IMG/VR virus record: IMGVR_UViG_3300045988_084534
Span: 1 to 64,000 of that record
Direction: 5' to 3' (one strand)
Source of the DNA: a virus
DNA: 64,000 bases
A program made the translations under genes and the position numbers. The notes below the pieces were generated by a model that was not told where the DNA came from, made no database searches, and worked only from the letters and a program-made list of their open reading frames with translations. Of the stretch, positions 2,672 to 60,733 are shown one piece after another (the stretch's first letter is position 1; each line of letters opens with the position of its first letter).

Positions 2672-3769
2672 ATGTTGTATAATTTTAGCAAAGAGCAAGA
2701 AGGCACGATTTTGAATAAAGCAAAAAATCTTATTGGACAGTCAATGCGTTATTCAGAATTATGCCGTGCATTAGGAATAGTACCAGAAACAGCCGGTAAA
2801 AAGAAAGCAAGGCAACTCAGAGATTTCAATAATCTATTTGAGTACAGCGTTGAGCCAAACGGAAAACAAGTTAAATATGTTATTAATAAAGTTTATTCTG
2901 AGCCGCTTTTGCCATACTATGATAAAGATGAATGGTATATAGCCATCAAAACTCGCATTTGCGAAATATTACGAGACAATAATTATCAAGTGACATGGTT
3001 TACGAAAACGCCGTTACTGAGAAATTTAGGCGCAGTCAATGATAACTATGCCGTCATTATGAATTTGACCAAGCGGTTGCAGCTTGAAGATGTACTTGGG
3101 CGCGATATGTCAGTAGACCATGATGTATGTAGAATATTTGGGAATTTGCTGTCCGATAGAATATATGATGCTCTTAACCGAATGGCAGAGAAAGAAAAAA
3201 TCATAGCTTATTCAGATGGATATGTTGTAAGATACATAAAAGACGATATAACGCAATATCATTTAGTTCCTATGATGAGAGCTGAAGATAGTCAATTGGT
3301 AAAATCAGAACTTGGAGAATATTTACGCAACCTTGAAATAAAGGCGATAGATTATGCCATAGAGCAAAACAATCCAGATATTATAAAATACCAGCATTCT
3401 TTCAATAGAGATTTTTATAAGCACTTATATTATGATGATGTAGAGTCCTACTTAAATCAAGCATTTCTAACATCAGATGTTCAAAATTATTTATATGACA
3501 ACGGAATACATTTTGATAAAATAAAGGGGATATATTCAGTCAAATTTATTACTCCCATTCAGCGTCAAGTTGAATCTGAACTGAGATGGTTTGGTCAATC
3601 TCAGAAAATTATAAACAATGCGGCAAAAGAAAAACTACTTACAAGTAAAAGCAAAGAATTGAAAAGATATGAAGCAATGAAAAAAGGACTTATTGATATT
3701 TGTATTGATTTGTCAACTGAAACAAAATATGAAGATATGATAAAGGAGAATAACAATGCAGAAAATTAA
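2672..3769 (+). CDS. hypothetical protein (365 aa), first gene of the hairpin-bounded cassette
   Basis: ORF track 2612..3769; ATG at 2672 (MLYNFSK) follows gaaagga. No family recognised. Confidence 0.6.
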   Translation: MLYNFSKEQEGTILNKAKNLIGQSMRYSELCRALGIVPETAGKKKARQLRDFNNLFEYSVEPNGKQVKYVINKVYSEPLLPYYDKDEWYIAIKTRICEILRDNNYQVTWFTKTPLLRNLGAVNDNYAVIMNLTKRLQLEDVLGRDMSVDHDVCRIFGNLLSDRIYDALNRMAEKEKIIAYSDGYVVRYIKDDITQYHLVPMMRAEDSQLVKSELGEYLRNLEIKAIDYAIEQNNPDIIKYQHSFNRDFYKHLYYDDVESYLNQAFLTSDVQNYLYDNGIHFDKIKGIYSVKFITPIQRQVESELRWFGQSQKIINNAAKEKLLTSKSKELKRYEAMKKGLIDICIDLSTETKYEDMIKENNNAEN

Positions 3770-6236: not shown

Positions 6237-6543
6237 CCTCCTCAGTTTTATCACGATCCATCAAAGCGTGACAATGCGGACACTGCTTTGGAGGATTAGT
6301 ATACTCTGCATCAAAAATCTTGTGGCAACAACTACACTCTCTAGTATCAAAACCCTGATTTCCCTCAATCCATCTTGCGTGTGCGCACATTGGATTTTCA
6401 CTTATGGTATAATATGTCATTTTATTAATAATCCAATTAAGCACGAACTTAGAATAACCATGTACATTTGGGCCATCATGGATGTCACATTCGTTATTAT
6501 TGAGCGTATCCATCAATTCATCAAGTTCAATATATTTTTTCAT
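6229..6543 (-). CDS. hypothetical Cys/His-rich protein (104 aa)
   Basis: ORF track; RBS GAGGAGG; CSCCH..CPHCH. Confidence 0.65.
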   Translation of the reverse strand: MKKYIELDELMDTLNNNECDIHDGPNVHGYSKFVLNWIINKMTYYTISENPMCAHARWIEGNQGFDTRECSCCHKIFDAEYTNPPKQCPHCHALMDRDKTEEDE

Positions 6544-6702
6544 TTATTCATCCTCCTCAACTGGAATAAAATTCTTTGCGCTGATATATCGCCATTCTTT
6601 AGCCACATAGATTAAAAATTGAGGATAACCAGCTTTATCATCTCGCACATTATAGACTGTGTAAATGTCGTTATCATATTGACTCTTAAATTTAACTTTC
6701 AT
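6544..6702 (-). CDS. small hypothetical protein
   Basis: ORF track 6544..6726. Several in-frame ATGs exist; 6702 has the best spacing to a GAGGA, so the start is uncertain. Confidence 0.45.
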   Translation of the reverse strand: MKVKFKSQYDNDIYTVYNVRDDKAGYPQFLIYVAKEWRYISAKNFIPVEEDE

Positions 6703-9313: not shown

Positions 9314-9886
9314 ATGGAAAATAATAACATTGTATATAAGCATACGAATTTAGAGAATGGATTAGTGTACTATGGAATTACGGATAATTATGATACCAGA
9401 TGGGACAACGGCAAAGGTTATCAAGGTAATAAACAATTTTGGGATGATATTGTAAAATACGGATGGAAAAATTTTAAGCACGAAATAATTAAAAGCGGAC
9501 TTACTAGAGATGAGGCTAAATTTCTTGAGGCGCTCTTGATTCAAGAAACAAAATCATATTTGCCTGAAATTGGATATAATAAACAACTTGGCGAAAAATT
9601 AGAATATGAGGAAATTGGAGCACGAACAAGAAAAGAGAGAAAGAATAAAGCATATGGATTCAATGGGAATAAAAAAGCTGTTGTTTATAAAAACATAACA
9701 TATATGTCAATAACTGAGTTAGCAAATAAAATTGGAGACGACCCAATCGCATTGTCACAGATGCTAAGCCCTGCAAATAGTAGAAAGATGAGAGATGAAT
9801 ATGTTGCCAACGGTCTTAGATATGCAACAGAAGAAGAAGCATATGCTTGTATGAATGATAGATTCGAGCGTTATATTTTGGGCTAA
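9314..9886 (+). CDS. free-standing GIY-YIG homing endonuclease
   Basis: IVYKHTN..NGLVYYGIT..TRW..GKGY..KYGWKNF..EAKFLEALLI. Confidence 0.8.
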   Translation: MENNNIVYKHTNLENGLVYYGITDNYDTRWDNGKGYQGNKQFWDDIVKYGWKNFKHEIIKSGLTRDEAKFLEALLIQETKSYLPEIGYNKQLGEKLEYEEIGARTRKERKNKAYGFNGNKKAVVYKNITYMSITELANKIGDDPIALSQMLSPANSRKMRDEYVANGLRYATEEEAYACMNDRFERYILG

Positions 9887-9894
9887 TTTTAATA

Positions 9895-9923
9895 TTGACA
9901 AATAATTAATTATATGGTATAAT
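9895..9923 (+). promoter_or_regulatory. consensus sigma-A promoter upstream of the RNA polymerase operon
   Basis: TTGACA (9895-9900), 17 nt, TGgTATAAT (TATAAT at 9918-9923). Confidence 0.8.
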
Positions 9924-9952
9924 AGCATTAAGCTCAAGGAGGTGGTAAGAAA

Positions 9953-10096
9953 TTGTGGAGCGAAATGAGCTATAACTGGTATGTATCAACAGATACAGAG
10001 CCGGAAGTATGGGATAATGAATATGAGCCAACTGAGCGTGATTGGGCGCTTTGGATATATGGTAGTTCAGAGAATGAATTAGAGGTGATTTTTTGA
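9953..10096 (+). CDS. small acidic hypothetical protein (47 aa)
   Basis: Hand translation; TTG start 10 nt after AAGGAGG. Its stop overlaps the TTG start of the next gene (TTTTGA). Confidence 0.4.
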   Translation: MWSEMSYNWYVSTDTEPEVWDNEYEPTERDWALWIYGSSENELEVIF

Positions 10097-11793
10097 GCCT
10101 ACAGACGCAAATTTATTTACATTCAGTAGATACTAGCGCATTTTATGATAACAATGAGTTGTTAATACATAATCGGCTTGTAAGACTGTATTCTTTGAGA
10201 AAGCGATTATCAGATATTGATAAACCGAAAAAGAAAAAGTCTGGTGAACAATCGGATAAAAAAATATATAAACCAAAGAAATCTGCTGAACGCAAAGGAT
10301 GGGAGAAATCGCTTGAGGGTAAACTTAGTTGGAAAGTAAAATCTGTAAATCGTTTACTCAAAAAAGAAAAGGCGCGGCTATCTGAATTGCTCGATGACGC
10401 AGTAAGCCGAAATGTAACTAGAGAATTGCGTCAAGATGCTGTGACTGATAAGACAGTTGTTAATCTATTTGAATCCGATTTAACGCGCAGCTTAGGTCTT
10501 GAACCATTCAAGTTGACCGATGAGCTATTCATCATTAACGTATTTTTCTTTCAGGTGTTTAACAATCTAGTTCATCAAGGGTTTATCTACAATGGTGAAA
10601 AATATGTGTTTCTTACAGCATCAGCAGGACAGATAAGAACGAAAAGAGCTGTATTTGTTAAAGAATCGTCGTTTAAACGCATTGAGCAAAAATTGATGTG
10701 TGGTTTGACCATAGACGAGATCAATGAACGGGGAGGCATGAATCAGAATAAATTCCTTGCCTATTTAGCGCTTATGAACTCTGCTACTGATGTTTGGCAA
10801 GATTTCGATATTGACAAATCAATAGTAGTAGACGATTGGGAAACGGCTGTTCCGGGATTGGTTGACCACATTGACGGCGTGTCATATGAGATTCGGCGCG
10901 AAATGACAGAGACGATTATTCCTCATATGGACGGATGCGGCATCATGCTCAATGAAACAACAAGAATGGTGCGTATGCCATGGATAAAGGGATTGCTTGT
11001 TACATTTCCATTTGACAAGTTTATCAAAGAGAAATGCGGCGGGGAAGCGACTGTAACAGATATTTATGGCAACGAGCATAAAATCATAGAGGAAGATATA
11101 CGGTATATATTCACAAAAAGTCAATTTAAACTATGGAAATTTTATGATTCGTGGGATTGTTATAAGGCGCGATTCAAAAATTTTGGATGTAATGCTTGTT
11201 ATTGCAATATAGAAGAATCATATATTCCAAAAAGCCGTATTAACTATCAGATGCTACAGACATTAAGTGATATGACTGATAATGAGATTGACCGCATTAT
11301 CTCTAAGACGATACAAGAGATTGATGATGTTGGTAAAGATTATCAAGTTACTATGAGATTCCTTGGCGCAACAGAGAACAATCGTTATAAATCAGCTATG
11401 CAAGAGGCGTTGTTAATATACCCTGAGCTTTTCAAGGATTCATATAATCGAGAAATTCTGAAACAGACCAAAAAGAGTCTAGTTAAGCAAGCCAAGGGTG
11501 GGCGGCTTAGAGTAAATGGAAAATATTTGTTCTTAGCGCCTGACCTATATGCGTTTTGTGAATGGTTGTTCCAAGGACAACAGAACCCACAAGGATTGCT
11601 GGCAGATGGGGATGTATATACAAACCAGTATCGAGATGAGGAAACATTGGCTTGTTTGCGTTCGCCGCATCTATATCGAGAATGGGCAATTAGGACGAAT
11701 CGGCGCAGCTTAGAGCTTGATTATTGGTTTGGCGGAACTAAGTGTATATATACTAGTTGTCATGATTTAATCAGTAGATACTTAATGTTCGAT
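10093..11793 (+). CDS. YonO/QDE-1-like single-subunit RNA polymerase, exon 1 of 3
   Basis: 567 codons ending ..CLRSPHLYREW..LISRYLMFD. The ORF stops one codon after the proposed 5' splice site. Confidence 0.6.
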
Positions 11794-12762
11794 TAGTTAG
11801 TCGCAGTCGAACCCTATGGAAACATAGGGATATAAAACGGTGTGAAGGCGTAAATGCGCCATGTCAGAAATGGCAACGGGGAAAGTGAGTGCAACCCCGT
11901 AGGAAATAGAATGAATGAATTATTAAACTATAAGGAGGTGGAAAGATGTATAAAGAAGGAATTTATTGCCATTGTGCATATCGAGTAAATGAAAATGGTG
12001 ATTGCTATACACAAAATGGCAAATTTGAGTGGGTGCATAGAAAGTGGCGATATAACAGTGATGGGTATGCTGTTGTATCAGCTTGTGGTCTAAAGTCAGA
12101 CGGTACTAAAACATTCCGCTCACTTCATGTTCATGTATTAGTTGCGCGAGAATTTGTTGATGGATGGTTTGAAGGAGCAGAAGTAAATCATAAAGATTTT
12201 AACCGTGCCAATCCTGCTTGGTGGAATCTTGAGTGGTTAAGTCATAAAGATAATATTGCTTATTCGCATAAAGCTGGTAAGTATAAAGGACGGTTTGGTG
12301 AGGACAATCCAAACTATGGCAATGACACACTACACAAGAGATACGTCGCCGAGCCTGAATTTGCCAAAGAAAAGCAGTCTCGTCCAAGAGGACAAAACGG
12401 ACGTTCTGTGAAATGCTTATTATATTGTCATCAAAATATGTGTTTTGAGCATTGGTTTGATTGTCAGCGCGACGCAGTTGATTTTCTTGTTGATTATAAT
12501 GTTGTAAAGCCAACTTGTAATAAAGAGAGTATAATTAGTAAGCTGAAACAAGAAGATGGATATAAGGGTTGGTATCTTATTCAAGATAAATAATTCATTT
12601 ATTCAAAAACCTCTATCGACTATCGAAAGGATATAAATTAACCCGTACGGGTTAATTTAGAATAACCGAGTAGAGTAGGAGATGGGTGAAATTCCCATCT
12701 CCGAAGCGCACCGAGCCTAAACGGGAAACCGCATGGCTATGATATAGTCAGTAACTCCTATG
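11794..12762 (+). mobile_element. group I intron (RNAP intron 1) carrying an HNH endonuclease gene
   Basis: P1: ttcgaT (11788-93) pairs with Gtcgaa (11806-11), with U.G at the splice site. P7: gactatc (12618-24) / gatatagtc (12741-49). Ends in G12762. Removal restores the frame. Confidence 0.8.
11946..12593 (+). CDS. intron-encoded HNH homing endonuclease
   Basis: LHVHVLVAREF..GAEVNHKDFNRANPAWWNLEWLSHKDN (HNH_3-type); RBS AAGGAGG. Confidence 0.8.
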   Translation: MYKEGIYCHCAYRVNENGDCYTQNGKFEWVHRKWRYNSDGYAVVSACGLKSDGTKTFRSLHVHVLVAREFVDGWFEGAEVNHKDFNRANPAWWNLEWLSHKDNIAYSHKAGKYKGRFGEDNPNYGNDTLHKRYVAEPEFAKEKQSRPRGQNGRSVKCLLYCHQNMCFEHWFDCQRDAVDFLVDYNVVKPTCNKESIISKLKQEDGYKGWYLIQDK

Positions 12763-13041
12763 TGCGACGGAGATAAGGCACTTGTAGTTAAAGACCGTAC
12801 TTTGTCTACAGTTGCCAAACGCAATATGCAAGATATAGTCCCTCTAGCATATGACCTCAAAAAAGCCAAGGGCGGCTTATTAAATCCAGACAGTATGTAT
12901 AATGGAATGGTCAATGCTTATACTAAGGGCAATATCGGGCCGGTTAGTAATAACATTACAAAAATATGGAATAGTGGTGAAATTACACAAGAAGAACTAG
13001 ATGTAGTGAAATGGCTTTGTTTCGAGAATAATGCTGTGATT
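12763..13041 (+). CDS. RNA polymerase, exon 2 of 3
   Basis: Begins CDGDKALVV; joined to exon 1 it gives FD|CDGD (DxDGD motif). The 3' boundary is supported by P1 of intron 2. Confidence 0.6.
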
Positions 13042-14139
13042 AAGAATCGGTCACCTTACACAGTAATGTGTATGTAAAATCTGGTGAACCTACAAATGTA
13101 GGGTGTGCGGCGTATGCCGTGCTAACAGGGAAAGCTAAAATGTTTGTTAAAAGATACTAATAGGGAGAGGAGGTGTTTATGATGAAATTTATTAACGAAC
13201 AGGCAATGAAAAATAAGATTGGCATTTATAAGATTTCCAACATTGTGTCCGGGCGGGTATATGTCGGTCAGACCAGAGAACGATTTCAAAGAAGATATTG
13301 GCTACATCAATGGGAGTTAAGGAATGGATGCCATGACAATAAATATTTGCAGAACGCTTGGAACAAATACGGAGAAGATAGCTTTATATTTGAAGTAATA
13401 GAGATTTTACCACGAGAAGAAATAGATGAACGCGAGAGATATTGGATAGCATATTATCGTGAGAATGGTGGTTGCTATTGTATTCAAGATGGCGGGCAAC
13501 CAACAAATCTTGTGAAGTATGTATCACCTGAAGTTCGTAAGAGAGTTGGTGAAATGAACCGACAACGTATGCTTGGGTCTAAGTTGAGTGAAAAGACTAA
13601 GCAGAAAATGGCTGAAATTCGTACTGGTAAGCATCCGATTAGGAAGAATGATTTAATGACCGAAGATGAGGCAAGAACTGTTAAAGAAATGCTCGTTGCT
13701 GGTTATTCTAGTGGTGACATTGTAAAAATAACAGGTGTACCATATAAGGGCATAAACAGTATTATATCAAATAATAACTATGCTGCTATTAAGGTTGATG
13801 GTTGGGACGTATATATTGCCAATAGAATGAAATCTGTAAAGCATCGACTTACAAAAGAGCAGATTCTTCAGCTTGTTGAAGATTCAAAGAACGGAATGAG
13901 CAATGCGGAGTTGGCTAAAAAATATAGCATCGGTGAATGCTCAGTGCGCCGTCATATTAGATTAAATAAATAACAAACATCATGCCAATCTTGTGCCAAG
14001 CCTCGAAAGAGGAAGGTTAAACGACTATCCTGAAAAGGAGTACAGATGGGGTGAAATTCCCCATTTGGAAGTGCCAGACCCCTTGAATATCAAGGGTGAA
14101 GATATAGTCTAAACCCCTAATAAATATCGGGAAACCGAG
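13042..14139 (+). mobile_element. group I intron (RNAP intron 2) carrying a GIY-YIG endonuclease gene
   Basis: P1: gtgatT (13036-41) / Ggtcac (13049-54). P7: gactatc (14023-29) / gatatagtc (14101-09). Terminal G14139. It shares the tggggtgaaattcccca hairpin with intron 1. An alternative in-frame boundary pair is 13038/14141. Confidence 0.75.
13179..13973 (+). CDS. intron-encoded GIY-YIG homing endonuclease with C-terminal HTH-like region
   Basis: GIYKISN..GRVYVGQT..RR..H...L..G.H.N..LQNAWNKYGE..F; RBS GAGGAGG. Confidence 0.85.
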   Translation: MMKFINEQAMKNKIGIYKISNIVSGRVYVGQTRERFQRRYWLHQWELRNGCHDNKYLQNAWNKYGEDSFIFEVIEILPREEIDERERYWIAYYRENGGCYCIQDGGQPTNLVKYVSPEVRKRVGEMNRQRMLGSKLSEKTKQKMAEIRTGKHPIRKNDLMTEDEARTVKEMLVAGYSSGDIVKITGVPYKGINSIISNNNYAAIKVDGWDVYIANRMKSVKHRLTKEQILQLVEDSKNGMSNAELAKKYSIGECSVRRHIRLNK

Positions 14140-14844
14140 GGTATATATTACGATTGTGCAAAGACGCAGTGGTTACCACAGCGTCCAAAGAGAGTTAATT
14201 CAATTATCAAGCAATATACAAAAGCTCGTGTTCCAAATTTCTTCCAATATGCCAAAGACAAAGACCCGGATACCCAAGTAGAACCTCTCAACAATTCCAC
14301 GATGAATCGTATATCGGCTAAAATCCCTGCTTCCCGCATCCGCTATAATAACAAGATTGGGAAGTTCGACTGGACTATGCTGATAAATAAATCAGTCGAT
14401 TATACCACTAGAGAAAATTCCCCAATCATTGAACGTTATAATTGGTGGATGTGGAATCAGCGTCGATTTGATTATGGAGATGACCCGCATATCAATGAGG
14501 ATGATTTATATAAATATCGTCGAATTGCACAAGATATAGTGGAATATAGCAATGAGACGCTAGATGTTGTGGTTAATAGTTTGGTGGCTTATCTATATAC
14601 GGTCAAAAAATCAAGTAATAAGAAAATGCTGTGGGCTTGTTTTGGTTGGACGATTGTAGAGAATTTAAGAATCAATACGGCGCAACTTAATCCAATCTGC
14701 CCCATTTGCGGTAAGCGGTTCAAGCCGCGCGATATATGCCAGCATTATTGCTCAGAGGAATGCTATAAGAAAGCAGATAATCAGAGGCGCACTGAATCGC
14801 GTGAAGCCCCACCTGTCCGCACGGGGGATATGTTAAAACAGTAG
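14140..14844 (+). CDS. RNA polymerase, exon 3 of 3
   Basis: The frame is open from 14113. Exon 2 plus exon 3 join in frame (..NNAVI|GIYYDCAKTQW..). C-terminal CPICG..CQHYCSEEC Zn motif. Confidence 0.55.
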   Translation, partial: GIYYDCAKTQWLPQRPKRVNSIIKQYTKARVPNFFQYAKDKDPDTQVEPLNNSTMNRISAKIPASRIRYNNKIGKFDWTMLINKSVDYTTRENSPIIERYNWWMWNQRRFDYGDDPHINEDDLYKYRRIAQDIVEYSNETLDVVVNSLVAYLYTVKKSSNKKMLWACFGWTIVENLRINTAQLNPICPICGKRFKPRDICQHYCSEECYKKADNQRRTESREAPPVRTGDMLKQ

Positions 14845-15333: not shown

Positions 15334-15889
15334 ACATAATAAACTGAATCAGCAATTTTATGAATATGCGGCTAATCTACTTGAATCTAAACCAGAGACA
15401 GTAAAGAAATATTGGCAAGCTTGTGTTGACACCATTGTTCATATGTTGCATTTTGATGGTAGATGCCAAATGCCGGGAGTTGGAACATTCGAGTTGAAAG
15501 AAGTCCCATCTTGGACTGGAATGGCAAAAGATGATAATGGTGAGCTTGTAGAGAGAACAATCCCGGCGTGGTTCAAAATTACATATAAAAGCAATGATGA
15601 TTTCATCAATAACGTCAATGGGCGTGGCGTTACAAAGAGATACCGTAAGCGTGTCCGTGAGCGTAAGTTGACACCTAACGATCTCAAGCTAATTACTCAA
15701 GCAGAAGCAGAACGAACAGCAAAACGCACACTAAAGCAGATGCAAGATGATCGCATTGAGCAAGCAAAGCAACAGAGTTATGATGATTTTATCAATGTAA
15801 TCAACAAGAAAAAAGAAGATTATGAACGGAAAAAGAAGGAAAAGGAACAGAAATTGAATGAATCTACAGAAGATACGACAAGCAACTGA
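15326..15889 (+). CDS. second HU/IHF-like protein with Lys/Glu-rich C-terminal tail
   Basis: ..YWQACVDTIVHMLHFDGRCQMPGVGTFELKEV..; overlaps the previous gene by 8 nt. Confidence 0.5.
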   Translation: MAEHNKLNQQFYEYAANLLESKPETVKKYWQACVDTIVHMLHFDGRCQMPGVGTFELKEVPSWTGMAKDDNGELVERTIPAWFKITYKSNDDFINNVNGRGVTKRYRKRVRERKLTPNDLKLITQAEAERTAKRTLKQMQDDRIEQAKQQSYDDFINVINKKKEDYERKKKEKEQKLNESTEDTTSN

Positions 15890-17042
15890 GCTGCTAGATA
15901 GCAAGTTGATTGACTTGCAGGAATGGACGGCGCGTTGTCTTGGTGAAGATTATAGGGGTGTTTGGTCAGAGGAATATTTACGGCGTTGTGCTGTATTTGT
16001 TCGCAATATGCTTAATAGCGCGGACGATTGTGAATCAGACGAAAAAGACAACAATATTCTATCACAGCTTAGAGAAGCTAAGATTGAGCTAGAGAAAGAA
16101 CGTAAGAAATTACAGAGTGAGAATATCCAGTATGTTCAGAATCAGCGTCTTGATGCAAGAGCAGACTTGATTCAAGAGAAGATTGCTGAGTCAATTAAGA
16201 ACCTTGAGCCGTTTACCATTCGAGATTTTAATAAGCTGCCACAAATGAATGTAAGTGGGCTTCTTTGTATTTCTGACCTTCATGCTGGCTCAACCTATGA
16301 AATCAAGGGTGCATATAATGAAATTGTAAATAAATACGATTTTGACATTATGAGGGCGCGGCTTGATGGGTTGCTCAATAAGATGTGCAATGATGACAAC
16401 TGCATCTGGCTTGATGATATTACTGTTGCCATACTTGGTGATTGCGTAGAGAATATTTTACGCACATCTAGCTTAACTAAGCTGAGAGAGCCGGTCCTTG
16501 ATACGGTTATCAAGTTGTCTGAATATCTAGCTGATTGGTTTGTTGAGTTACATGATCGGCTTGAAATTCCTGTTAATGTGGTGATGGTTGGTGGCAACCA
16601 TGATGTGTGCCGTCCATTGACATCTAAGCCTCAGTTTGAGGAAGAAAATTTAGGTAAAATCATTGTATGGTATCTACAAGAGCGGCTAAAGTCGGTAGAT
16701 GGCATTACAGTTGATGATTATACGGATTGTGCTATTAAATACATTAAGAATAATGCAATCATGCTTCATCATGGAGATGGCGGTGATATAGCTGAGACAA
16801 TGCGATATTTTGAAAATTTATATAATATTGACATTGACGAATGCTATGTTGGGCATCTACACAGACAAGAAATGAAAAATGCTGGCATTACTGAACTGGG
16901 TGATAAACTATGTTGGCGTGTTGGTTCGGTATGCGGCGTTGATGGATTTGCCAAGTCTATTCGTAAAGCATCAAGACCATCTTGTATGTTTACTACATAT
17001 TCAGAAGATGGCGCAGAGTGGCGCAAAACATTTTATCTTTAA
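15858..17042 (+). CDS. calcineurin-like metallophosphoesterase (SbcD/Mre11-like motifs)
   Basis: Ordered motifs ISDLHAG, ILGDCVEN, GGNHD, HHGDG, GHLHR. Confidence 0.75.
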   Translation: MNLQKIRQATELLDSKLIDLQEWTARCLGEDYRGVWSEEYLRRCAVFVRNMLNSADDCESDEKDNNILSQLREAKIELEKERKKLQSENIQYVQNQRLDARADLIQEKIAESIKNLEPFTIRDFNKLPQMNVSGLLCISDLHAGSTYEIKGAYNEIVNKYDFDIMRARLDGLLNKMCNDDNCIWLDDITVAILGDCVENILRTSSLTKLREPVLDTVIKLSEYLADWFVELHDRLEIPVNVVMVGGNHDVCRPLTSKPQFEEENLGKIIVWYLQERLKSVDGITVDDYTDCAIKYIKNNAIMLHHGDGGDIAETMRYFENLYNIDIDECYVGHLHRQEMKNAGITELGDKLCWRVGSVCGVDGFAKSIRKASRPSCMFTTYSEDGAEWRKTFYL

Positions 17043-17044
17043 TA

Positions 17045-17073
17045 TTGACAATCAATAGATTGTGTGATATAAT
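17045..17073 (+). promoter_or_regulatory. consensus sigma-A promoter firing into an ORF-free region
   Basis: TTGACA (17045-50), 17 nt, TGaTATAAT (TATAAT at 17068-73), starting 3 nt after the stop of the preceding gene. Confidence 0.8.
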
Positions 17074-17079
17074 ACAACC

Positions 17080-18056
17080 ATGGAATTGCGGCTAATATCT
17101 GCGGAGTTAGCCTTGGCTTGGGGATGCGTCCTACAAGTTTCATAATAGAGGAAAAGCCTGAACGCTTTTCGCTGTCATATGACAGAATTTATCTTATCGG
17201 TAGCGTCAGTTGCAAATGGCGCTACCAACCTTAATTCGATTCATTCTTTGCTAGGTGATTTGTGTTAATCATGCTTGCGGGGCGATTAACCCGCCTAGCA
17301 GAGTTGAATATAATCTAAGCCGTAATCTGCAATTCAGCAGAGCCTAATACGAGCATGACGTTGGTTGTGGCGGGCTACGTCAACATAGTATCGTAAACTG
17401 TATCGGCTCAGTTTTCATCTCGACCACGCAATCTCTAAAGTATCCCGTTTAAGTGAGCAACGGCGAATCTGTAAGTGGGCGTGTTGGAGATTTATAACCG
17501 ACAAAATCCTATCCTTGACGATAGGCATATAACAACAGGTGTGTTATATGAGCGTATGAAGCATATGGCTCGGTTGTCTTTGAGTTATATGTGGACGTTT
17601 ACATTGGGTTCTCAGCGCACCACAAGGCAACAAGAAAGCGCTGACCGACTATGCGGTAAAGATGGGACAACAGGCATTCATAGGAGCTGATGACGAACCA
17701 TGTAATTCCCAACATAGCGCCATGCGTGGGTGAAATAAGATGAGGCGCAAAAAACATAACAGTGAGTGGCGCTAGATGCCCGATGGCGCTTAATAAATGG
17801 GGTTTTAATAGTTGTATCTAGGTATATACTAAAACTGCCTGTCGCTACTACTCATTGGCGGCTATGAATATCCGAAAGGAGGTCACTTTCTCTTGAATTA
17901 TCCACTGGTTTATCCGAAGCATAATTGACGAAAGGAGGTGACAGTGGCGATAGCCACATATCTACAATAAGCCCAACTCAATGGGAACTGTTGTTTAACT
18001 GAATATTGAACCTTGACAAATACGAAGCAGCTAAGAGCAATCTTGGCTGCTTCGTC
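17080..18056 (+). ncRNA. candidate large structured noncoding RNA (about 975 nt), class unknown
   Basis: No credible ORF. At least 13 hairpins or nested stems were read by eye (e.g. 17090-17112, 17151-17170, 17199-17226, 17250-17299, 17526-17550, 17612-17644, 17716-17790, 18022-18055). It is locally GC-richer than its flanks. Confidence 0.5.
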
Positions 18057-18097
18057 ATATTTATAGGAAAATAAACGGAACGGAAAGGAATGAGAAT

Positions 18098-18922
18098 ATG
18101 TTTTGCCCATATTGTGGCAAGGAAAAGCAAGATAGCCAATTCTATAAAAGTCCAATCAAAACGGGCGAATATATTAAACCATGCAAATCATGTGTAACTG
18201 AGCTATATAAGCAAGCTCTTGAATCCACTAAAGACCAAGGCGCGGCATTATGGTCAACCTGTATGCAGACCGGCATTCCTATGAGACGGGCTGAATATAC
18301 TGCTTGCCTTGATACGCTAGAAAAGGCGGCTAAAGGCAAAAAGCCTAGTCTATTTATATTGTATCACACATATTTGTCTACATCGCCTGATAAATTAACA
18401 GGTGTATGGGATAGTGATATGGAGTTGTCTAATTTCAAGGATTTGGGCGATGTGGCTAAAGGTGAAACTGATGAAGTTGCGCTTAAAGCAAGATGGCGCA
18501 AACAATGGGGCGGCGACTATGAAGATGAGGACTGTCAGTGGCTAGATGATATGTTTGATAGTTATACATCTGGTGTATTTGAAATGGACACCGCCATGGA
18601 AATGCGCTATCGTGATTTGTGTAAGCTAGAACTTGAACAATATAAAAATGGTGTAAATAAAGATACACAGTCGCAGATTAAAACGCTTATGTCTCTACTT
18701 AAACTTGATGATTTTAAGAGCAATCAGAAGTCGGACGCTGAACGAGCATTTGAGAAACGAGTTGCAATTATAGAATCAACTAGACCGGCTGAATGTGAGG
18801 AATTAAAAGAATTTCTTGATAAAGTTGGCTATGAAAAAGAAAAAGCTATGATGATGCGTAGCTTGCGAAATGCAATTTGCAACACCCGCGAATATCCTGA
18901 TGTGAGCAAGGAGGAAGCTTGA
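18098..18922 (+). CDS. possible small terminase subunit (Zn-ribbon N-terminus)
   Basis: Called by position immediately upstream of, and coupled to, the large terminase. CPYCG..CKSC. No motif-level support for function. Confidence 0.4.
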   Translation: MFCPYCGKEKQDSQFYKSPIKTGEYIKPCKSCVTELYKQALESTKDQGAALWSTCMQTGIPMRRAEYTACLDTLEKAAKGKKPSLFILYHTYLSTSPDKLTGVWDSDMELSNFKDLGDVAKGETDEVALKARWRKQWGGDYEDEDCQWLDDMFDSYTSGVFEMDTAMEMRYRDLCKLELEQYKNGVNKDTQSQIKTLMSLLKLDDFKSNQKSDAERAFEKRVAIIESTRPAECEELKEFLDKVGYEKEKAMMMRSLRNAICNTREYPDVSKEEA

Positions 18923-20763
18923 TGGGGCGCTCTCAAATGGGTGGCATTCGTAGGGCGTACATGGCTGACAAGCTGCGTGGAACTGTATCTGGCAATGAGA
19001 ATATTGACACTGAAATAGAAGAACGAATAATAGATTGGAACACATTATATCGGTATAATTGGGACATCTATACAGAATTTCACCTTGATATATCATTAAA
19101 GCCGTATCAGCGTGACGCAATACACGAGATTGGAGTTAGTGACACATTTTTTTGGAGAGCGGGTCGTGGTGGCGCAAAATCGTTTGTTACAGCTTGTGCA
19201 GCAATGTGTAAGCTCATGCTCTATCCAAACTGTTGGATCGTTGTCACTGCATCCACAGTAGACCAAGCAAATGCTATTGTTGAAGATAAAATTCAAAGAG
19301 AATTGATAAACAAACTCTCACCTTATTTGAGATACTGTTACGAAAAACAATGGCTAGTTATTACTAAACCGGGTGATGGATATAGAATTGAAAACACACT
19401 TAACAACTCTGTTCTTCGTGTATTAGCGCCTGTTGAATCTAGCCGTCGTAGTCGTTCTAATTTTACAATTTATGATGAAGCGGCAGTTATGAAAAAATCT
19501 GCAATCGACCAGATTTTTGAAGGTATGGCGTTCCCAAGACAACCTCTTTATCTCAATAATCCAAAATACGCAAACAATAAAAGATGGCTTGAAGAACCAA
19601 AGAGCATCTATCTCACATCTTCTAAATATAAGTACCAGTGGTGGTATCGTACTTGGAAAGATTGTGTAACAGGATATTATATGGATAAAAAGTCTAGGTA
19701 TAATGTATTTGCGTCTGACTTCTTTGATAACATAGAGAACGGATTAAAAACATGGGGTGATTATCGCCAAAAGAAGCGCACTATGAACGACCAAGATTTC
19801 AGAATGGAAATGTTAAATGAGGCAATAGGCGAGAATGAAGATGCGTTTTTTACAATTAAGCAATTCAAAGAGAGTCAAATTATTGAGCGGTGCTTCCGTC
19901 CACCTACTGCGTTACAGTTCTTTGCTGGTGAACAACCTGACTTCCCAGAAAAGAAAGAGGATGAGATACGGTTGGTAATCATGGATATTGCTTTTGCGAA
20001 CACCACTGGTTGCACAAAGAATGATAATACTATTATCACGCTTATGTCGGCGCATTGGAATAGTAAAAAGAATAGATTTGAACGGCACATTGATTATATA
20101 GAAGGACATAACGCATCTGATACAATCGGTGCATCTGATAGATTTAGATACCTTAAATGGGTATATGACGCAGATTATGCCGCATTTGATGGAAGAAGTG
20201 GTGGCGAGGTTATATATAACCACTTAACCGAGCCATTGCCGATGCCTAATCTTGGTGCAAGGTGGAATGGTTGTGGGTTGAGTCCTGCTGAAAAATATCA
20301 TGTTGTATCTGATGCAAAGTTGACTGATTATCATAGTCGCGTTGTTGATAAAAATGCTGTTCCGTGCTTAATCCCGGTTATAGCTACTCCTGAAATAAAT
20401 AGCCAAGGTTGGCTATCATTGCGTAAACAGCTTGAAACCAATAATATGAAATTCCTTATTTCCATGCAAGATTATCAGAATGAGCTAACAGATAGCGGTG
20501 AATATTATCAATATACTGCTGAAGAATTAGCTAATCAGCTTGAGCCGTATGGTCAAACTGATATGATGGTTATAGAGGCGGTTAATCTAAAGACGGTCAT
20601 TAAGCAGGATAAAATCAAACTAGAAGAACCGCGCACAGGCACAAAGGATAGAATTGTAACCATTATGTATGGAAACTATATTATTGATTTGATTGAGAAC
20701 GCATGGCAGCAACAGTTGCAAGAAGATGAGTTTGATATAGACTCCATTCAATTAGTATATTGA
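18922..20763 (+). CDS. terL: terminase large subunit
   Basis: Walker A-like WRAGRGGAKS, Walker B-like FTIYDEAA; 613 aa; ATG follows AAGGAGGA. Confidence 0.8.
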   Translation: MGRSQMGGIRRAYMADKLRGTVSGNENIDTEIEERIIDWNTLYRYNWDIYTEFHLDISLKPYQRDAIHEIGVSDTFFWRAGRGGAKSFVTACAAMCKLMLYPNCWIVVTASTVDQANAIVEDKIQRELINKLSPYLRYCYEKQWLVITKPGDGYRIENTLNNSVLRVLAPVESSRRSRSNFTIYDEAAVMKKSAIDQIFEGMAFPRQPLYLNNPKYANNKRWLEEPKSIYLTSSKYKYQWWYRTWKDCVTGYYMDKKSRYNVFASDFFDNIENGLKTWGDYRQKKRTMNDQDFRMEMLNEAIGENEDAFFTIKQFKESQIIERCFRPPTALQFFAGEQPDFPEKKEDEIRLVIMDIAFANTTGCTKNDNTIITLMSAHWNSKKNRFERHIDYIEGHNASDTIGASDRFRYLKWVYDADYAAFDGRSGGEVIYNHLTEPLPMPNLGARWNGCGLSPAEKYHVVSDAKLTDYHSRVVDKNAVPCLIPVIATPEINSQGWLSLRKQLETNNMKFLISMQDYQNELTDSGEYYQYTAEELANQLEPYGQTDMMVIEAVNLKTVIKQDKIKLEEPRTGTKDRIVTIMYGNYIIDLIENAWQQQLQEDEFDIDSIQLVY

Positions 20764-21000
20764 TATTTGCCTATGAAGCGGCGGCTATGTTGGTGTGTTG
20801 CCGTTGAGGTACTATTAGGGTTGTGTGAAATCCAAGTTCCAACTTAGGTTTAGTCAAAAGCCGAAAATAAAAACACTCAAAAATATAAAACGAGCAGATA
20901 GGGAGGACAAGTAGCTCAATGAACTTTGGCATACGTTAATGAAGTCCATAATCTAACTGCTCTAATATATAAACAATAAAACAAAGAAAGGAGGTTGAAG

Positions 21001-22578
21001 ATGCCAAAAAATAATAAAGATGTGAAGCTGTCTAAAAATGACCTTCAGGACATTATTGATTTTAGTGCAGGTCTGATGGCGGTTGATAATTTCTATTCAC
21101 CATTTCTGAGCAATCAGCTATTGACTAATCTAAACAATAATCCGCGCTTACCTAATGCGGAAGCGGTAAAAAAGGCACTCAATGATTATAAGAATAGCGG
21201 CGCTGATTTACAGGGGTTTGTAGAATTTGCATCAGCGTTTGATATGATTTTCAAGCGCACTTTATATTCTTATGCAAATGCGCTATCTTTCGACCTTCAG
21301 ATAACGTGCAAAAACGCATATACAAAAGGCGACTATGAATCAGAGGAATATAAGAAAGATCGACAGACAGTAGATAATTTTCTTACTAACTTTGATTATA
21401 AGAAAGAGTTCTACAATGTTCTGCTAAACGTTCTAAAGCGCGACTCATATTTTACTTGGTTTAGAAAAACTAAGAGCGGCAATCGCGGTAAGATGAAGTA
21501 TGCTCTACAAATTATGCCGCAGGATTATTGTATGCTTACAGGATACTTTGAAAAAGGACTGCTGTGGTCTTTTAACGTAATGTATTTCGTACAGCCGGGC
21601 GTAGATATTGAGGGGTTTGACCCAAGTCTTAAAAAGACGTATCTCGATGCGATTGAAAATGCGGAGCTAAATTATAGACCATCTGCACCACTAGACCAAC
21701 GAACTGGCTCATATGCTCTATGGGCAGATGTATCACCACTTAATGGTGCTTATGCTTGGAAATTTTCTACAGACAACTTTGCCAGCAATCCCTTCTTAGC
21801 ACCATATGTAGCAAATGTTCTACGCAGTGATGAGGTTGGCGAATTACAGTATAATAAAGACCTTATCTCTGCTGCTGGTATTCTAGCTGGTGAGATTAGA
21901 TTATTTGATTCAGCCAAGTCGGGTACGAAGGCGAATCAGTTCGCTATTGACCCGAAAACGCTTGGAGCATTTATGCAAAAGGCTGCTAATGGATTAAAGA
22001 ATACTGTCAAATTGGCAGCTATGCCGCTTGAGAATATTAAGTTCTTCCAATTTGAGGACAAGAACCCAAATAGCTATACAAATGAACTAACTACAACGGC
22101 TGGCATTGGTACTGGCATTAGCCGTGTTATCTATTCATCTGATAAGATGAGCAATGCAGAACTAGAGGCGGCGCTTAACGAGGTTTATCAGACTATGAAG
22201 CCAATGTATGCTCAGTTTAATAATTTCCTTGATTTCTATGTAAATCAAATGACGAGCAAATATAAGTTCAAGTTTGAGTTCGTTGGCTCTAACTATCAAT
22301 TTGAGCGAGATGCCCGATTTGATAAGATGATGAAGATGGCTGATAAGGGGCTTGTGCTCAATTCGTCTGCATGGGCTAGTGCTGTTGGCATGAATCCTGT
22401 TACATTTGATAGGATGCTTGCTGAGAGTAAATATACTGGATGGATTGATAAGTATTCAACTATGATGCTTAATGCTAATACATCGTCTTACAAAGATAAT
22501 GAGGGTGGTAGACCGCGCAAATCAGGCTCGTCTTTAACTGAATCAGGCGAAGCAAGCCGAGAAACATTAGAGGAATGA
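21001..22578 (+). CDS. portal protein (by position and size)
   Basis: 525 aa, first large ORF after terL, RBS AAGGAGG. No specific motif recognised. Confidence 0.55.
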   Translation: MPKNNKDVKLSKNDLQDIIDFSAGLMAVDNFYSPFLSNQLLTNLNNNPRLPNAEAVKKALNDYKNSGADLQGFVEFASAFDMIFKRTLYSYANALSFDLQITCKNAYTKGDYESEEYKKDRQTVDNFLTNFDYKKEFYNVLLNVLKRDSYFTWFRKTKSGNRGKMKYALQIMPQDYCMLTGYFEKGLLWSFNVMYFVQPGVDIEGFDPSLKKTYLDAIENAELNYRPSAPLDQRTGSYALWADVSPLNGAYAWKFSTDNFASNPFLAPYVANVLRSDEVGELQYNKDLISAAGILAGEIRLFDSAKSGTKANQFAIDPKTLGAFMQKAANGLKNTVKLAAMPLENIKFFQFEDKNPNSYTNELTTTAGIGTGISRVIYSSDKMSNAELEAALNEVYQTMKPMYAQFNNFLDFYVNQMTSKYKFKFEFVGSNYQFERDARFDKMMKMADKGLVLNSSAWASAVGMNPVTFDRMLAESKYTGWIDKYSTMMLNANTSSYKDNEGGRPRKSGSSLTESGEASRETLEE

Positions 22579-33438: not shown

Positions 33439-33730
33439 ATGGCAAAAACAAACAGTAATTACTCCATCATTGCTGATGTTGAGCTTGAGCTAAAAAATGC
33501 GCAAAAACAATTAAACGAGTTTAGGAAAGATAATAAATTAAATCTTGACTTAAATGTTAAAGGTTCTAAAAGTTTATCTGACGCAGATGGTAAAGTAAAA
33601 AAATTAGATGATTCTACCAGAGACCTAGTTTTTACATATCAGCAATTTAGACAGGTGCTAGATTCTGTTGTTGATGTTACTGGCAAAATGGTGGAACAAG
33701 TCAAGACGCTGGATGCGGCACAGACAGAGT
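33439..33730 (+). CDS. tail tape measure protein, exon 1 of 5
   Basis: Coiled-coil N-terminus. The ORF terminates 8 codons after the proposed splice site. Confidence 0.7.
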
Positions 33731-34997
33731 TAATCTTTAGCTCGCTTTCGTTGTAAAACGATTGAAAAATAACCCATTGAATTGCTGGAAACCCCTTAGA
33801 GCTGTCATGCTAAAGCGGAGAGATGAAATACGCTCAAACGTAAATGCTTGAAAAGTTGATAGATTGGGCAATCAGCAGCTAAGACCCGAATAGGGTAAAG
33901 TTCAACGACTATCCCGTAAGGGAGTACACTACAAGCGATTGGTAGTGGAAGTGGTGGGTATCCTAATAGGATAAAGATATAGTCTGGTCTTATAAGAAAT
34001 TATAAGCGCGTAAGCGAATGTAGGAGTAGCGTCCTTTTAATGTAATGATAAGACAAATATTCATAAGGAGGTGAATATGTGTATAGAAGAAAAATAGATT
34101 ATAATTTAGTAAAATCTGAGTTTGATGAGCGTGGATACGAATTATTATCTACAGAATATGTGAATAATGTTACGAAATTGCAATATGTTTGCCCAAAACA
34201 CAGAAACAAAGGTATTTTAGAAACTACATTTGCTAATTTTACAAAGGGAAAAGGATGCCCATATTGTGCAAATAGAGTAAAAAAGACACAAGAAGAATAT
34301 GAGGCAGAGTTAGCAATAAAAAAGCCAACAATTAAAGTAATTGGGAAATATATAAATCTTAAAACAAAGATAGAACATGAATGTGTTGTCTGTGGCTATC
34401 GTTGGGATGTATTGCCAGATAATATGCTACATATGTCAAACGGTTGTCCTAAATGCGGGAAAAGAGCACCATTGAATCAAAATGAGTTAATAAATAGGAT
34501 TGCTAAAATAGATGATTCTATTGAGGTTGTTGGAGAATATTATAATACTGCAACGAAAATGTCTTTTAGGTGTAAGAAATGTGGAAATGTTTGGGAGGCT
34601 AAACCAAATAATATATTGAATGGCAAAGGATGTCCAAATTGCAAATCGTCTAAAGGAGAAAAAGAGGTTGCACGCATTCTTGATGAACTCGATGTATTGT
34701 ATAAACCACAATTTAAGTTTCAGGATTGTAAAGATGAATTGCCACTTCCATTTGACTTTTATCTTCCAGATTATAATATTTGCATAGAATATGATGGTGG
34801 ACAACATTATAAGCCATGCACATTCGGTGGTATTTCTAAAGAGCAAGCAAGAGTGAATTTTGAGCTTGCTAAGAAACATGATAGAATCAAAGATGCGTAT
34901 TGCAAACAACACAACATAAAATTAGTAAGAATCCCGTATTGGGAATATAAAAATATAAGAAATATATTATCATTACATTTACATTAAACACAAAACG
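33731..34997 (+). mobile_element. group I intron (TMP intron 1) with PD-(D/E)XK-type endonuclease gene
   Basis: P1: gagT (33727-30) / Gctc (33740-43). P7: gactatc (33907-13) / gatatagtc (33976-84). Ends in G34997. The join gives ..AAQTEFKKVSDLSG.., which is in frame. Confidence 0.8.
34079..34987 (+). CDS. intron-encoded endonuclease: three Zn-ribbon modules plus C-terminal Vsr/PD-(D/E)XK-like nuclease
   Basis: Repeated C..H/CPxC modules (CPKH..CPYC, CVVCG..CPKCG, CKKCG..CPNC). C-terminal FDFYLP..ICIEYDGGQHY..DRIKDAYC..NIKLVRIPY. Confidence 0.65.
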   Translation: MYRRKIDYNLVKSEFDERGYELLSTEYVNNVTKLQYVCPKHRNKGILETTFANFTKGKGCPYCANRVKKTQEEYEAELAIKKPTIKVIGKYINLKTKIEHECVVCGYRWDVLPDNMLHMSNGCPKCGKRAPLNQNELINRIAKIDDSIEVVGEYYNTATKMSFRCKKCGNVWEAKPNNILNGKGCPNCKSSKGEKEVARILDELDVLYKPQFKFQDCKDELPLPFDFYLPDYNICIEYDGGQHYKPCTFGGISKEQARVNFELAKKHDRIKDAYCKQHNIKLVRIPYWEYKNIRNILSLHLH

Positions 34998-60177: not shown

Positions 60178-60192
60178 AAGGAATGATTGAAT

Positions 60193-60723: not shown

Positions 60724-60733
60724 TATAAATTTA

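Follow-up and report, generated by a model that had tools for sequence, protein, structure and literature searches.

The window analysed here, a 64-kb stretch of viral DNA, contains a non-coding interval between an exonuclease gene and a TerS-like (terminase-small-subunit-like) gene, at the boundary of the middle and late genes, where functions of DNA metabolism give way to packaging. The gene order is RdRP-like polymerase gene (PF05183), HU-like genes, exonuclease, TerS-like gene, TerL and portal, and both the HU genes and the gene for a YonO-type RNA polymerase precede the interval in this SPbeta-like phage. The exonuclease, of the metallophosphatase type, is encoded by an open reading frame (ORF) at 15858-17042 that ends with a TAA stop codon; a predicted promoter starts 3 nt beyond it. 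At the other end, the ATG of the TerS-like gene lies at 18098, 42 nt beyond a terminator-like hairpin (18022-18055). The interval had been described as richer in G+C than its surroundings; its content is raised, but only modestly (0.42-0.46 versus 0.37-0.41 in the flanks). No tRNA or tmRNA was detected in the window with ARAGORN. The features of the locus are the following:

17045-17073, + strand: predicted sigma-70-type promoter (sigma-A in Firmicutes) with extended −10 element, 12/12 match with TG
17075-17146, + strand: module A1, hairpins 17090-17112 and 17116-17138 (alignment A2 and centroid fold)
17147-17235, + strand: module A2, hairpins 17151-70, 17172-85 and 17199-17226
17236-17312, + strand: module B, long bipartite hairpin 17246-57/17292-17303 with inner stems, in 23 of 26 relatives
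17313-17397, + strand: module C, hairpins 17326-41 and 17357-81, in 9 relatives
17398-17500, + strand: module D, hairpins 17417-29/17479-91 and 17443-49/17459-66, shared with relatives L016, L021 and L023 only
17501-17550, + strand: module E, hairpin 17508-25 (CCTATC/GATAGG) and 9-10-bp hairpin 17526-50
17551-17648, + strand: module F, drum-family RNA, covariance-model match to RF02958
17649-17750, + strand: modules F2 (17649-17700) and G0 (17701-17750), both variable
17751-17866, + strand: module G, proposed closing helix 17760-67/17850-57, GGCGC stem and two candidate pseudoknot helices, in 18 relatives
17867-18021, + strand: core of module H, universal (26 of 26 relatives)
18022-18055, + strand: terminator-like hairpin of 15 bp closing the non-coding unit, with compensatory G-C to A-U changes
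20768-20881, + strand: second drum RNA, between the TerL and portal genes and outside the 1-kb interval, RF02958 53.5 bits

We compared this interval with the same intergenic region of 26 related IMG/VR phages. The original prediction of a perfect TTGACA-N17-TGaTATAAT promoter directly after the exonuclease gene was borne out. The sequence consists of TTGACA (17045-50), a 17-nt spacer and TG-n-TATAAT (TATAAT at 17068-73); it is the sole 12/12 site within 16500-21200 and has a predicted transcription start at about 17080. Both hexamers and the TG are unchanged across the 14 distinct relatives that have the promoter module. This module is missing from 11 of the 26 relatives, so the promoter is itself cassette-borne, and the array can therefore do without a promoter of its own. 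At the 3' end, the T-run that follows the hairpin 18022-18055 is weak (CATATTTATA), and in relatives L001 and L026 the hairpin is swapped for a non-homologous one followed by TTTTGTTATATTT. The promoter, the terminator and any processing of the transcript are predictions. The claim that about 975 nt downstream of the promoter are free of genes also held. The only + strand ORF of at least 60 aa (17475-17690, 71 aa) has no Pfam match, and no ORF is conserved across the 26 homologous regions, where ORF position and length vary and where three relatives have no ORF of at least 40 aa.

The interval is densely structured, as had been claimed. All 13 pairings listed in the original prediction are perfect, and 10 of them are recovered by the MFE fold as well as by the centroid fold. 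Over 986 nt the fold reaches −321 kcal/mol, with z = −4.9 for the + strand and −4.4 for the − strand relative to shuffled sequences. In 200-nt windows the mean z, obtained with an approximate dinucleotide-preserving shuffle, is −2.15 inside the interval versus −0.73 outside (sd 1.33). RNA-level structure on the + strand is indicated by G-U pairs that never vary, together with some compensatory changes. The expected covariation of stems in homologs was found in part, with compensatory changes in modules A2, C, F and H and a non-significant signal in module G; covariation is sparse because the relatives differ little from one another (77-95% identity, module by module). In this phage, 28-33% of the predicted base pairs connect separate modules, and some domain-domain interaction is conceivable in this particular phage.

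The comparison of relatives revealed a marked mosaicism. The homologous region ranges from 258 to 1216 nt and is made up of about ten modules, each present or absent independently, and only the final ~230 nt (17867-18097) are found in every relative. Even where the exonucleases are 96-98% identical, module content varies from relative to relative. PMBT24, a syntenic phage, lacks the whole unit, and TR-TP1 has genes plus a mere ~350-nt gap at the corresponding place. The proposal of a giant structured RNA thus stands insofar as the interval is non-coding, fronted by a predicted promoter and structured on the + strand, but not as a single RNA, given the independent assortment of its modules.

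The modules differ in how their base pairs are maintained. In module A1, one-sided G-U to G-C changes leave the pairs intact; this module is missing from L012 and L019 although A2 is kept there. In module A2, the stem 17172-85 shows a compensatory U-A to C-G change, and the 10-bp stem 17199-17226, which includes a G-U pair, is invariant. A GCGGG/CCCGC to GTGGG/CCCAC change occurs in module B among relatives, and four pairs of module C carry compensatory changes (U-A to C-G, G-C to A-U, A-U to U-A and A-U to G-C). The position of module D is occupied in most relatives by a different cassette, called D'. Two mutually unrelated versions of module F2 exist, and just 4 of the 26 relatives have G0. 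In module G, 93% of the alignment cells pair, versus at most 48% in slid controls. Module H contains two Shine-Dalgarno-like (SD) elements: SD1 is accompanied by an 11-codon TTG mini-ORF (17893-17928), and SD2 (17929-41) is paired to 17882-95. It also has a covarying hairpin (17944-57) in three versions, GTGGC/GCCAC, GAGCC/GGCTC and GAGGC/GCCTC. A further stretch of the module, of which the TTGACA at 18013-18 is part, is invariant. The DNA of module H is 91-95% identical, while the adjacent protein is only 70% identical.

Several searches delimited the distribution of these elements. With blastn, the interval matched none of 50,697 phage records, and self-blast found no further copy of any module elsewhere in the 64-kb window. 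No riboswitch, ribozyme or large-RNA family of Rfam 15 matched, either in the window (gathering and E-value modes) or in the interval at E<=10. The core patterns of modules B and G are confined to this phage clade, and nhmmer profiles of modules A, B, C, E, G and H had no match in SPbeta, PMBT24, TR-TP1 or the other loci searched.

One module belongs to a known family. Module F matches the full-length drum model (RF02958); in a search of 1.3 kb it scores 39.8 bits (E = 1e-5), below the threshold of 43. Its orthologues in L001, L006, L008, L014 and L020, which occupy the same position, reach 43.3-44.8 bits. In the alignment of this module (A6), 84% of the cells are paired versus at most 48% in slid controls, six pairs are changed on both sides, and none of 500 shuffles reached the observed covariation. 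The P1 and P2 stems and the conserved sequence blocks of drum (UAUGAAGC and GGGUU...ACCACAA) are present in 17551-17648 (Weinberg et al. 2017, PMC5737381). Relatives carry the second drum RNA (20768-20881) at the corresponding site, with at least 43 bits (45-57.6) in 10 of the 16 scanned. In the literature as here, drum is an orphan small RNA of Firmicutes-type phages; the published family is followed by a Rho-independent terminator and associated with a nearby (DUF3800-related) protein gene (Weinberg et al. 2017, PMC5737381). Here, in contrast, the first copy stands inside a multi-cassette array without a 3' terminator of its own, and the second inside an operon. No stem with a T-run was seen past 17648, the next terminator-like site being at 18022. 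The published association with DUF3800 proteins was not reproduced here, since no such protein was found nearby: none appeared among the matches listed, which included 25 of the 28 weak families, for 65 ORFs of the window, a stretch covering about 70% of the genome, and no DUF3800 protein gene was found in the SPbeta neighbourhood either.

A second orphan motif, the DUF3800-VIII RNA (RF03075, threshold 40.2), was detected in L012, L014, L016 and L019 (47.8-54.3 bits) and in SPbeta (47.5-54.3 bits over all five), and had no match in the window. In L012, the outer stem of module E (the equivalent of 17508-25) surrounds this RNA. In L014 and L019 the 3' arm of that stem still follows the RNA and the 5' arm has diverged; in L016, the RNA lies one cassette further upstream. 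The window phage has lost the DUF3800-VIII core, and the flanking stem 17508-25 alone remains. As for D', in relatives it contains an internal terminator with no promoter downstream. In phages of 155-220 kb, drum lies 215-310 nt upstream of D'; at the two such loci examined, drum follows a beta-CASP nuclease gene and precedes a ClpP-like protease gene. D' was also found within an array of about 25 tRNA genes. The idea that D' is a universal YonO promoter was rejected, D' being missing from the window and from nine relatives.

We propose, with a probability of about 55%, that this non-coding stretch forms an "RNA moron" island, a set of accessory small-RNA cassettes, and not one RNA machine. 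The host RNA polymerase would fire from the consensus sigma-A promoter at 17045 into about 975 nt and stop at the hairpin 18022-18055. The transcript would be a string of about ten independently folding cassettes of 50-115 nt apiece, the drum-family RNA among them. These cassettes would be accessory cargo: near-identical flanking genes enclose different subsets of them in relatives, including the widespread DUF3800-VIII RNA and D', which are not in the window. The same cassette families populate non-coding RNA islands of other phage lineages, and in SPbeta YonO would transcribe the counterpart as a non-coding leader. The universal 3' module (17867-18097) may form a cis-acting core that probably insulates or stabilises late-gene expression: its terminator would halt read-through of the host polymerase ahead of the late genes, and the SD-like elements and mini-ORF of module H may stabilise or tune the downstream mRNA.

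Could the whole interval instead be a cis-acting leader of the late operon? A YonO-like polymerase would then start upstream, and the hairpins and terminators would be insulators, 5' stabilisers or processing sites and not separate RNAs. We regard this as possible but doubtful. It fits the late start of SPbeta, which is upstream of a non-coding RNA and yonK, with the DUF3800-VIII RNA likewise upstream of yonK. It also fits the location of the arrays at nuclease-to-morphogenesis gene junctions in three lineages, the universality of module H with its terminator and SD-like elements, the internal terminator without later promoter in the D' of relatives, and the second drum within the late operon. 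However, a core cis function should not tolerate such a range of lengths, or the absence of the unit from PMBT24 and its replacement by genes and a ~350-nt gap in TR-TP1, nor would it need a perfect host promoter right in front.

Drum, D', DUF3800-VIII and the clade-specific modules might all be horizontally exchanged counter-defence RNAs directed against DUF3800 or RNase H2-like host nucleases, a target type that occurs in type VII retrons and Cas12a2-linked systems, and would then act as decoys or antidotes. On this view, which we judge unlikely, the phage would hold the RNAs but not the protein, transcribe them from a strong host-type promoter and shuffle them in the manner of an anti-defence island. 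Pseudo-ToxI and RNA anti-CRISPRs are comparable cases of RNA counter-defence.

In phage lambda, the PR' promoter, 6S RNA and tR' form a terminated leader that the Q antiterminator overcomes. By analogy, the 17045 promoter might make a terminated leader that a Q-like antiterminator extends into the packaging genes. A perfect promoter and a terminator do lie directly ahead of the first late gene, and terminator function survives non-homologous replacement of the hairpin. Such a switch is nonetheless very unlikely, because 11 of the 26 relatives lack the promoter module with their late genes unchanged, the phage has its own YonO-type polymerase, which in SPbeta transcribes the late genes, and an antiterminator was not identified.

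An elaborate pac or cos region had been offered as another possibility, and a DNA-level packaging signal for the adjacent terminase could be imagined in module H, which adjoins the TerS-like and TerL genes and is better conserved than the neighbouring coding DNA. This is highly improbable. SPbeta-like phages open their genomes at a pac site situated between yonR and yonP; this site precedes yonO, which encodes the polymerase, and is distant from the terminase genes, so that by analogy a pac role seems unlikely here. No repeat array of the TerS-binding type was seen, and the G-U pairs and compensatory changes indicate selection on an RNA specific to one strand.

The hypothesis of one giant ornate RNA, of the GOLLD/ROOL type or of a new class, requires the whole ~1 kb. 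The promoter-to-terminator unit of about 975 nt folds strongly, some helices between modules are predicted, and the F2 variants CCAATGA, CTGATGA and CCGATGA are all able to pair with the invariant TCATTGG of module G. Yet GOLLD, ROOL, OLE and HEARO, suggested as candidate families, gave no covariance-model match, either in the window at the gathering threshold or on 16900-18200 at E<=10, and there are no tRNAs. The long-range pair 17716-23/17783-90, put forward as a trait of such an RNA, bridges G0, present in 4 of 26 relatives, and a module present in 18; predicted G0-G helices cannot be general, since G0 is usually absent. Architecture differs even between near-identical phages, only the 3' 230 nt being universal, and modules match small autonomous families found alone elsewhere. 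We therefore hold a giant RNA to be extremely improbable, and a false lead is thereby removed. Finally, small proteins, namely a leaderless 21-codon ORF (ATG 17080, conserved, 7 nt past the −10 element), the 71-aa ORF (17475) and the mini-ORF (17893, with a perfect SD and intact in 24 of 24 variants), scarcely deserve credence as the explanation, because substitutions in 17080-17145, most of them non-synonymous by our reading, keep base pairs (G-C to G-U), the 71-aa ORF spans the drum RNA and is neither conserved nor matched to a family, and at most the mini-ORF, spanning 36 nt, is real.

The RNA-cassette reading gives a defined genetic setting to drum and the DUF3800-associated RNAs, which have been orphan motifs since 2017 and for which a "sophisticated function" was suspected. 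Both occur as interchangeable cassettes in islands that would run from promoter to terminator, at the middle/late junction of phages with a YonO-type RNA polymerase.

Known systems resemble the interval in part. STAB-SD and polypurine 5' mRNA stabilisers are described for Bacillus and phage SP82 (Agaisse & Lereclus 1996; Hue et al. 1995; PMC3997798). Module H similarly has SD sequences that no gene follows, with up to 13 nt complementary to the 3' end of 16S rRNA in relatives, the motif 17929-41 being stronger there than in the window. Unlike a STAB-SD, SD2 is base-paired, is degenerate in about ten relatives (GGATGGTGG) and is separated from the gene by the terminator. Like GOLLD and ROOL, which sometimes lie in non-coding RNA or tRNA islands, the interval is phage-borne, non-coding and highly structured; in contrast to them, it has no covariance-model match, no conserved global architecture and no tRNAs in the window, and its length and content vary four- to five-fold between close relatives.

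The phage moron of Hendrix and colleagues is reportedly an accessory unit of promoter, cargo and terminator inserted between core genes. At the level of sequence, the interval likewise places a consensus promoter and a terminator between the conserved exonuclease and TerS-like genes, and it shows presence/absence polymorphism across otherwise similar phages. The difference resides in the cargo, a protein gene in the moron and several concatenated structured RNAs here.

Another close counterpart is the yonN-yonK gap of SPbeta, an ORF-free stretch of 1681 nt (SPBc2 59153-60833) in an SPbeta-type gene order, ahead of the morphogenesis genes. As in relatives of the window phage, it holds the DUF3800-VIII RNA (59409-59474), which shares the strand of yonK and lies 257-322 nt ahead of its start codon, and element D' (59539-59599). 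The late operon of SPbeta depends on YonO, and its start precedes both yonK and a non-coding RNA that is not annotated (Forrest et al. 2017, PMC5467207), the published transcription start being position 2225998 of the 168 genome (PMC5467207). Some differences must be considered. In SPbeta the exonuclease gene comes after the gap, and in the window phage it comes before. SPbeta shows no detectable sequence similarity to the window's own modules. The window has neither D' nor the DUF3800-VIII core. Nevertheless, the same type of island is present in SPbeta, a prophage of the tractable Bacillus subtilis 168, so that the function of these RNAs is directly testable there.

The gene-free region at 17043-18097 lies between an exonuclease gene and a TerS-like gene.

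15858-17042, metallophosphatase-type exonuclease gene (Pfam Metallophos, PHROG exonuclease)
18098-18922, TerS-like gene, 274 aa (terminase small subunit label from position alone)
18919-20763, large terminase (TerL) gene, overlapping the TerS-like gene; the portal gene is next

The original prediction described a promoter-driven, ORF-free and hairpin-dense stretch, and this observation is confirmed. The TTGACA-N17-TATAAT sequence with its upstream TG begins 3 nt past the exonuclease stop codon and is the sole 12/12 sigma-70-type (sigma-A in Firmicutes) site in 16500-21200. The only plus-strand ORF of at least 60 aa in the region (17475-17690) had no family match, and no ORF was conserved across the homologous regions of 26 relatives. 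All 13 complementarities paired by eye were perfect, and the MFE and centroid structures shared 10 of them. The native fold was stronger than that of shuffled sequences, since the 986 nt gave -321 kcal/mol (z = -4.9 for the plus strand, -4.4 for the minus strand); within 14-22 kb, the mean folding z of 200-nt windows was -2.15 inside the region versus -0.73 (sd 1.33) outside. G+C was raised only slightly.

The suggestion of a giant structured RNA was not borne out. In a covariance-model search, the region had no Rfam 15 match at gathering thresholds, and at E<=10 GOLLD, ROOL, OLE and HEARO were absent. The sole meaningful match at E<=10 was the drum RNA (RF02958) at 17551-17648, with the model matched full-length at 39.8 bits (E 1e-5; the threshold is 43 bits). 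The 64-kb window contained no tRNAs. When the proteins on either side of the region were used as queries, 26 IMG/VR loci from the same phage group were found; their homologous intergenic regions, aligned with E-INS-i, ranged from 258 to 1216 nt and displayed a mosaic of modules.

Modules of the region and their presence in the relatives
17043-17146, A1, promoter and hairpins; full A in 15/26
17147-17235, A2; also without A1 in L012 and L019
17236-17312, B; 23/26
17313-17397, C; 9 relatives
17398-17500, D; L016, L021 and L023 only
17501-17550, E; 22/26 (L014 and L019 partial)
17551-17648, F (drum); 22/26
17649-17700, F2; variable, two unrelated versions
17701-17750, G0; 4 relatives
17751-17866, G; 18 relatives
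17867-18097, H; 26/26

Module content differs even among phages whose exonuclease is 96-98% identical to that of the window. The locus with the most similar TerS-like protein (L008, 98%) nevertheless has a region of 509 nt, and module H stands essentially alone in three relatives. This mosaic, together with the variable length and the lack of a conserved ORF, is incompatible with one RNA needing a fixed ~1-kb architecture. It is very probable that the region is a mosaic of small modules, one of them a drum RNA, rather than a giant RNA.

Module F orthologues in loci L001, L006, L008, L014 and L020 scored 43.3-44.8 bits, at or above the drum threshold. Among 16 distinct copies, six pairs of the drum stems had changes on both sides, values matched by none of 500 shuffles, and pairing reached 84% versus at most 48% in slid controls; three sequence variants of the 3' stem occur (CAGCG/CGCTG, GCGGT/ACCGC and CAGGA/TCCTG). 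A second drum RNA was found further downstream.

20768-20881, drum RNA (RF02958), 53.5 bits, in the interval between the TerL and portal genes

Relatives keep it in this position: of 16 scanned, 10 have a copy that reaches the 43-bit threshold (45-57.6 bits). This drum RNA thus lies inside the late operon. The modules other than F had no Rfam match. They contain local hairpins, G-C to G-U changes on one side of a pair, G-U pairs that do not vary and a few compensatory changes, a pattern that favours an RNA of the plus strand. Strong covariation statistics are out of reach among relatives this close; in module G, 93% of cells pair and the covariation is non-significant for this reason. The core patterns of modules B and G are confined to the window's phage clade. 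Four relatives (L012, L014, L016 and L019) carry a DUF3800-VIII RNA (RF03075; 47.8-54.3 bits, threshold 40.2). In L012 it is enclosed by a CCTATC/GATAGG stem, the same as window hairpin 17508-25; L014 and L019 keep the 3' arm, the 5' arm having diverged, and in L016 the RNA lies one cassette further upstream.

The universal module H is 91-95% identical in DNA, whereas the adjacent protein is just 70% identical. A Shine-Dalgarno-like motif, SD1 (AAAGGAGGT), is a perfect SD and precedes a TTG-initiated 11-codon mini-ORF (17893-17928, MNYPLVYPKHN) that is intact in all 24 module H variants and overlaps a hairpin. The mini-ORF may serve as a leader peptide, an attenuator or a ribosome-loading site. 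A second motif, SD2, is paired to 17882-95 and is followed by no ORF in relatives. These elements resemble STAB-SD and polypurine stabilisers (PMC3997798) and may have a stabiliser role. Module H also holds one invariant block and a hairpin (17944-57) with three compensatory versions, and the last of its structures is a 15-bp hairpin (18022-55) that likewise shows compensatory changes. L001 and L026 have a different hairpin and a T-run in its place, so that terminator function at this point seems to be under selection.

The phage is SPbeta-like, with a TerL 40% identical to those of Enterocloster phages and 27% identical to SPbeta yonF. Upstream of the region lie two HU-like genes and a gene (10093-11796) whose Pfam RdRP match (E 2.4e-8) is the signature of single-subunit RNA polymerases of the type of SPbeta YonO. 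This polymerase gene looks split over 9314-14844, and introns or homing-endonuclease genes may interrupt it.

10093-11796, polymerase N-terminal part, aligning to residues 2-483 of the 831-aa PMBT24 enzyme
11946-12593, HNH endonuclease gene
12760-13077, ORF
13173-13973, GIY-YIG endonuclease gene, with a sub-threshold group I intron (13778-14132)
14302-14844, ORF whose product matches the C-terminal positions 698-845 of an 847-residue PHROG profile

Rfam also identified confident group I introns at 33721-34006, 35988-36246 and 48397-48694 and another sub-threshold one at 37700-37985. Homing-endonuclease genes number at least four of the GIY-YIG type and two of the HNH type, and the genome is thus heavily colonised by mobile elements. 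Two ORFs match PADLOC PD-Lambda-1 (E 2.6e-42) and PDC-S57 (E 3.4e-14) and are defence-type genes borne by the phage. A second ~1-kb stretch without an ORF above 70 aa (1553-2612), amid divergently oriented gene blocks, may be a regulatory or packaging-start region, as in SPbeta yonR-yonP. Enterocloster phage PMBT24 and Thomasclavelia phage TR-TP1 share the gene order polymerase, HU, exonuclease, TerS-like, TerL, portal, ferritin. At the island position, PMBT24 has gaps of only ~60-70 nt and TR-TP1 has holin and endolysin genes, then a ~350-nt gap, in both cases without an Rfam match; the island is therefore accessory.

We propose, with a probability of about 0.55, that the region is an accessory "RNA moron" (promoter-cargo-terminator unit) inserted where middle genes give way to late genes in a YonO-type phage. 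Independently folding small RNAs would be made between the predicted promoter and the predicted terminator, and module H would be the conserved cis-acting end, insulating the late genes and possibly stabilising them. Where transcription begins and ends, and what the RNAs do, is inferred here. The main rival, rather unlikely but not mutually exclusive with this proposal, is a leader that acts in cis over the entire region and is transcribed by the phage polymerase. SPbeta offers a precedent for such a leader: its YonO-dependent late operon begins upstream of yonK and of a non-coding RNA that had no annotation (PMC5467207). SPbeta has an ORF-free gap of 1681 nt from yonN (HU) to yonK-yonJ (exonuclease) that contains a DUF3800-VIII RNA (47.5 bits) on the late-gene strand; the SPbeta packaging start is elsewhere, in the yonR-yonP interval. 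Readings of the region as a leader with lambda-like antitermination, as one giant RNA, as a pac site or as a source of small proteins are all very improbable.

Beyond the RNA moron proposal, the SPbeta gap also holds a 61-nt element, D', 85-87% identical to a cassette of most gut-phage relatives (E 3e-9 to 4e-8 in the whole phage database), although the TerL proteins of these relatives and of Bacillus SPbeta-family phages are only 27% identical.

L007, 3385-3450, D' in a relative
L049 (SPbeta), 6540-6600, minus strand, D'
L079, 3690-3710, D'

D' consists of a small hairpin, AGGAG and an intrinsic terminator; its core pattern occurs in 58 IMG/VR contigs, and it is apparently a widespread RNA motif of phages that is new to description. 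A search of the window did not find it, which rules D' out as an essential promoter. Phages of 155-220 kb that are not related to the window clade have a drum RNA 215-310 nt upstream of D', both on one strand; at the two loci examined, this drum RNA has a beta-CASP nuclease gene before it and a ClpP-like protease gene after it. A 238-kb contig carries D' within an array of ~25 tRNA genes, and an SPbeta-like prophage has it ahead of DUF3800-VIII. Given this co-occurrence, drum, D' and DUF3800-VIII make up a guild of small RNA cassettes found together in the non-coding RNA islands of phages, which in the loci compared lie repeatedly where a nuclease gene meets morphogenesis genes. A 12-nt repeat (AAAATCCTATCC) flanks the DUF3800-VIII and D' pair in L016 (~3310-3470), and 8-nt direct repeats (GTAATCAG) flank the DUF3800-VIII RNA of SPbeta (L049 6397-6480); such repeats may mark where mobile cassettes inserted, or may have arisen by chance.

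Proteins of the DUF3800 type resemble RNase H2 and are found in type VII retrons and Cas12a2-linked loci. None is encoded by the window ORFs scanned, which leaves room for the speculative and improbable reading that the phage RNAs act as decoys against DUF3800 nucleases of the host. As families, drum and DUF3800-VIII were already known, though as orphans. The new points are that they are arranged, with several unnamed motifs, as exchangeable cassettes in islands, that these islands have a defined position in large Firmicutes phages, YonO-type ones among them, and that the cassettes connect to the tractable leader of SPbeta.
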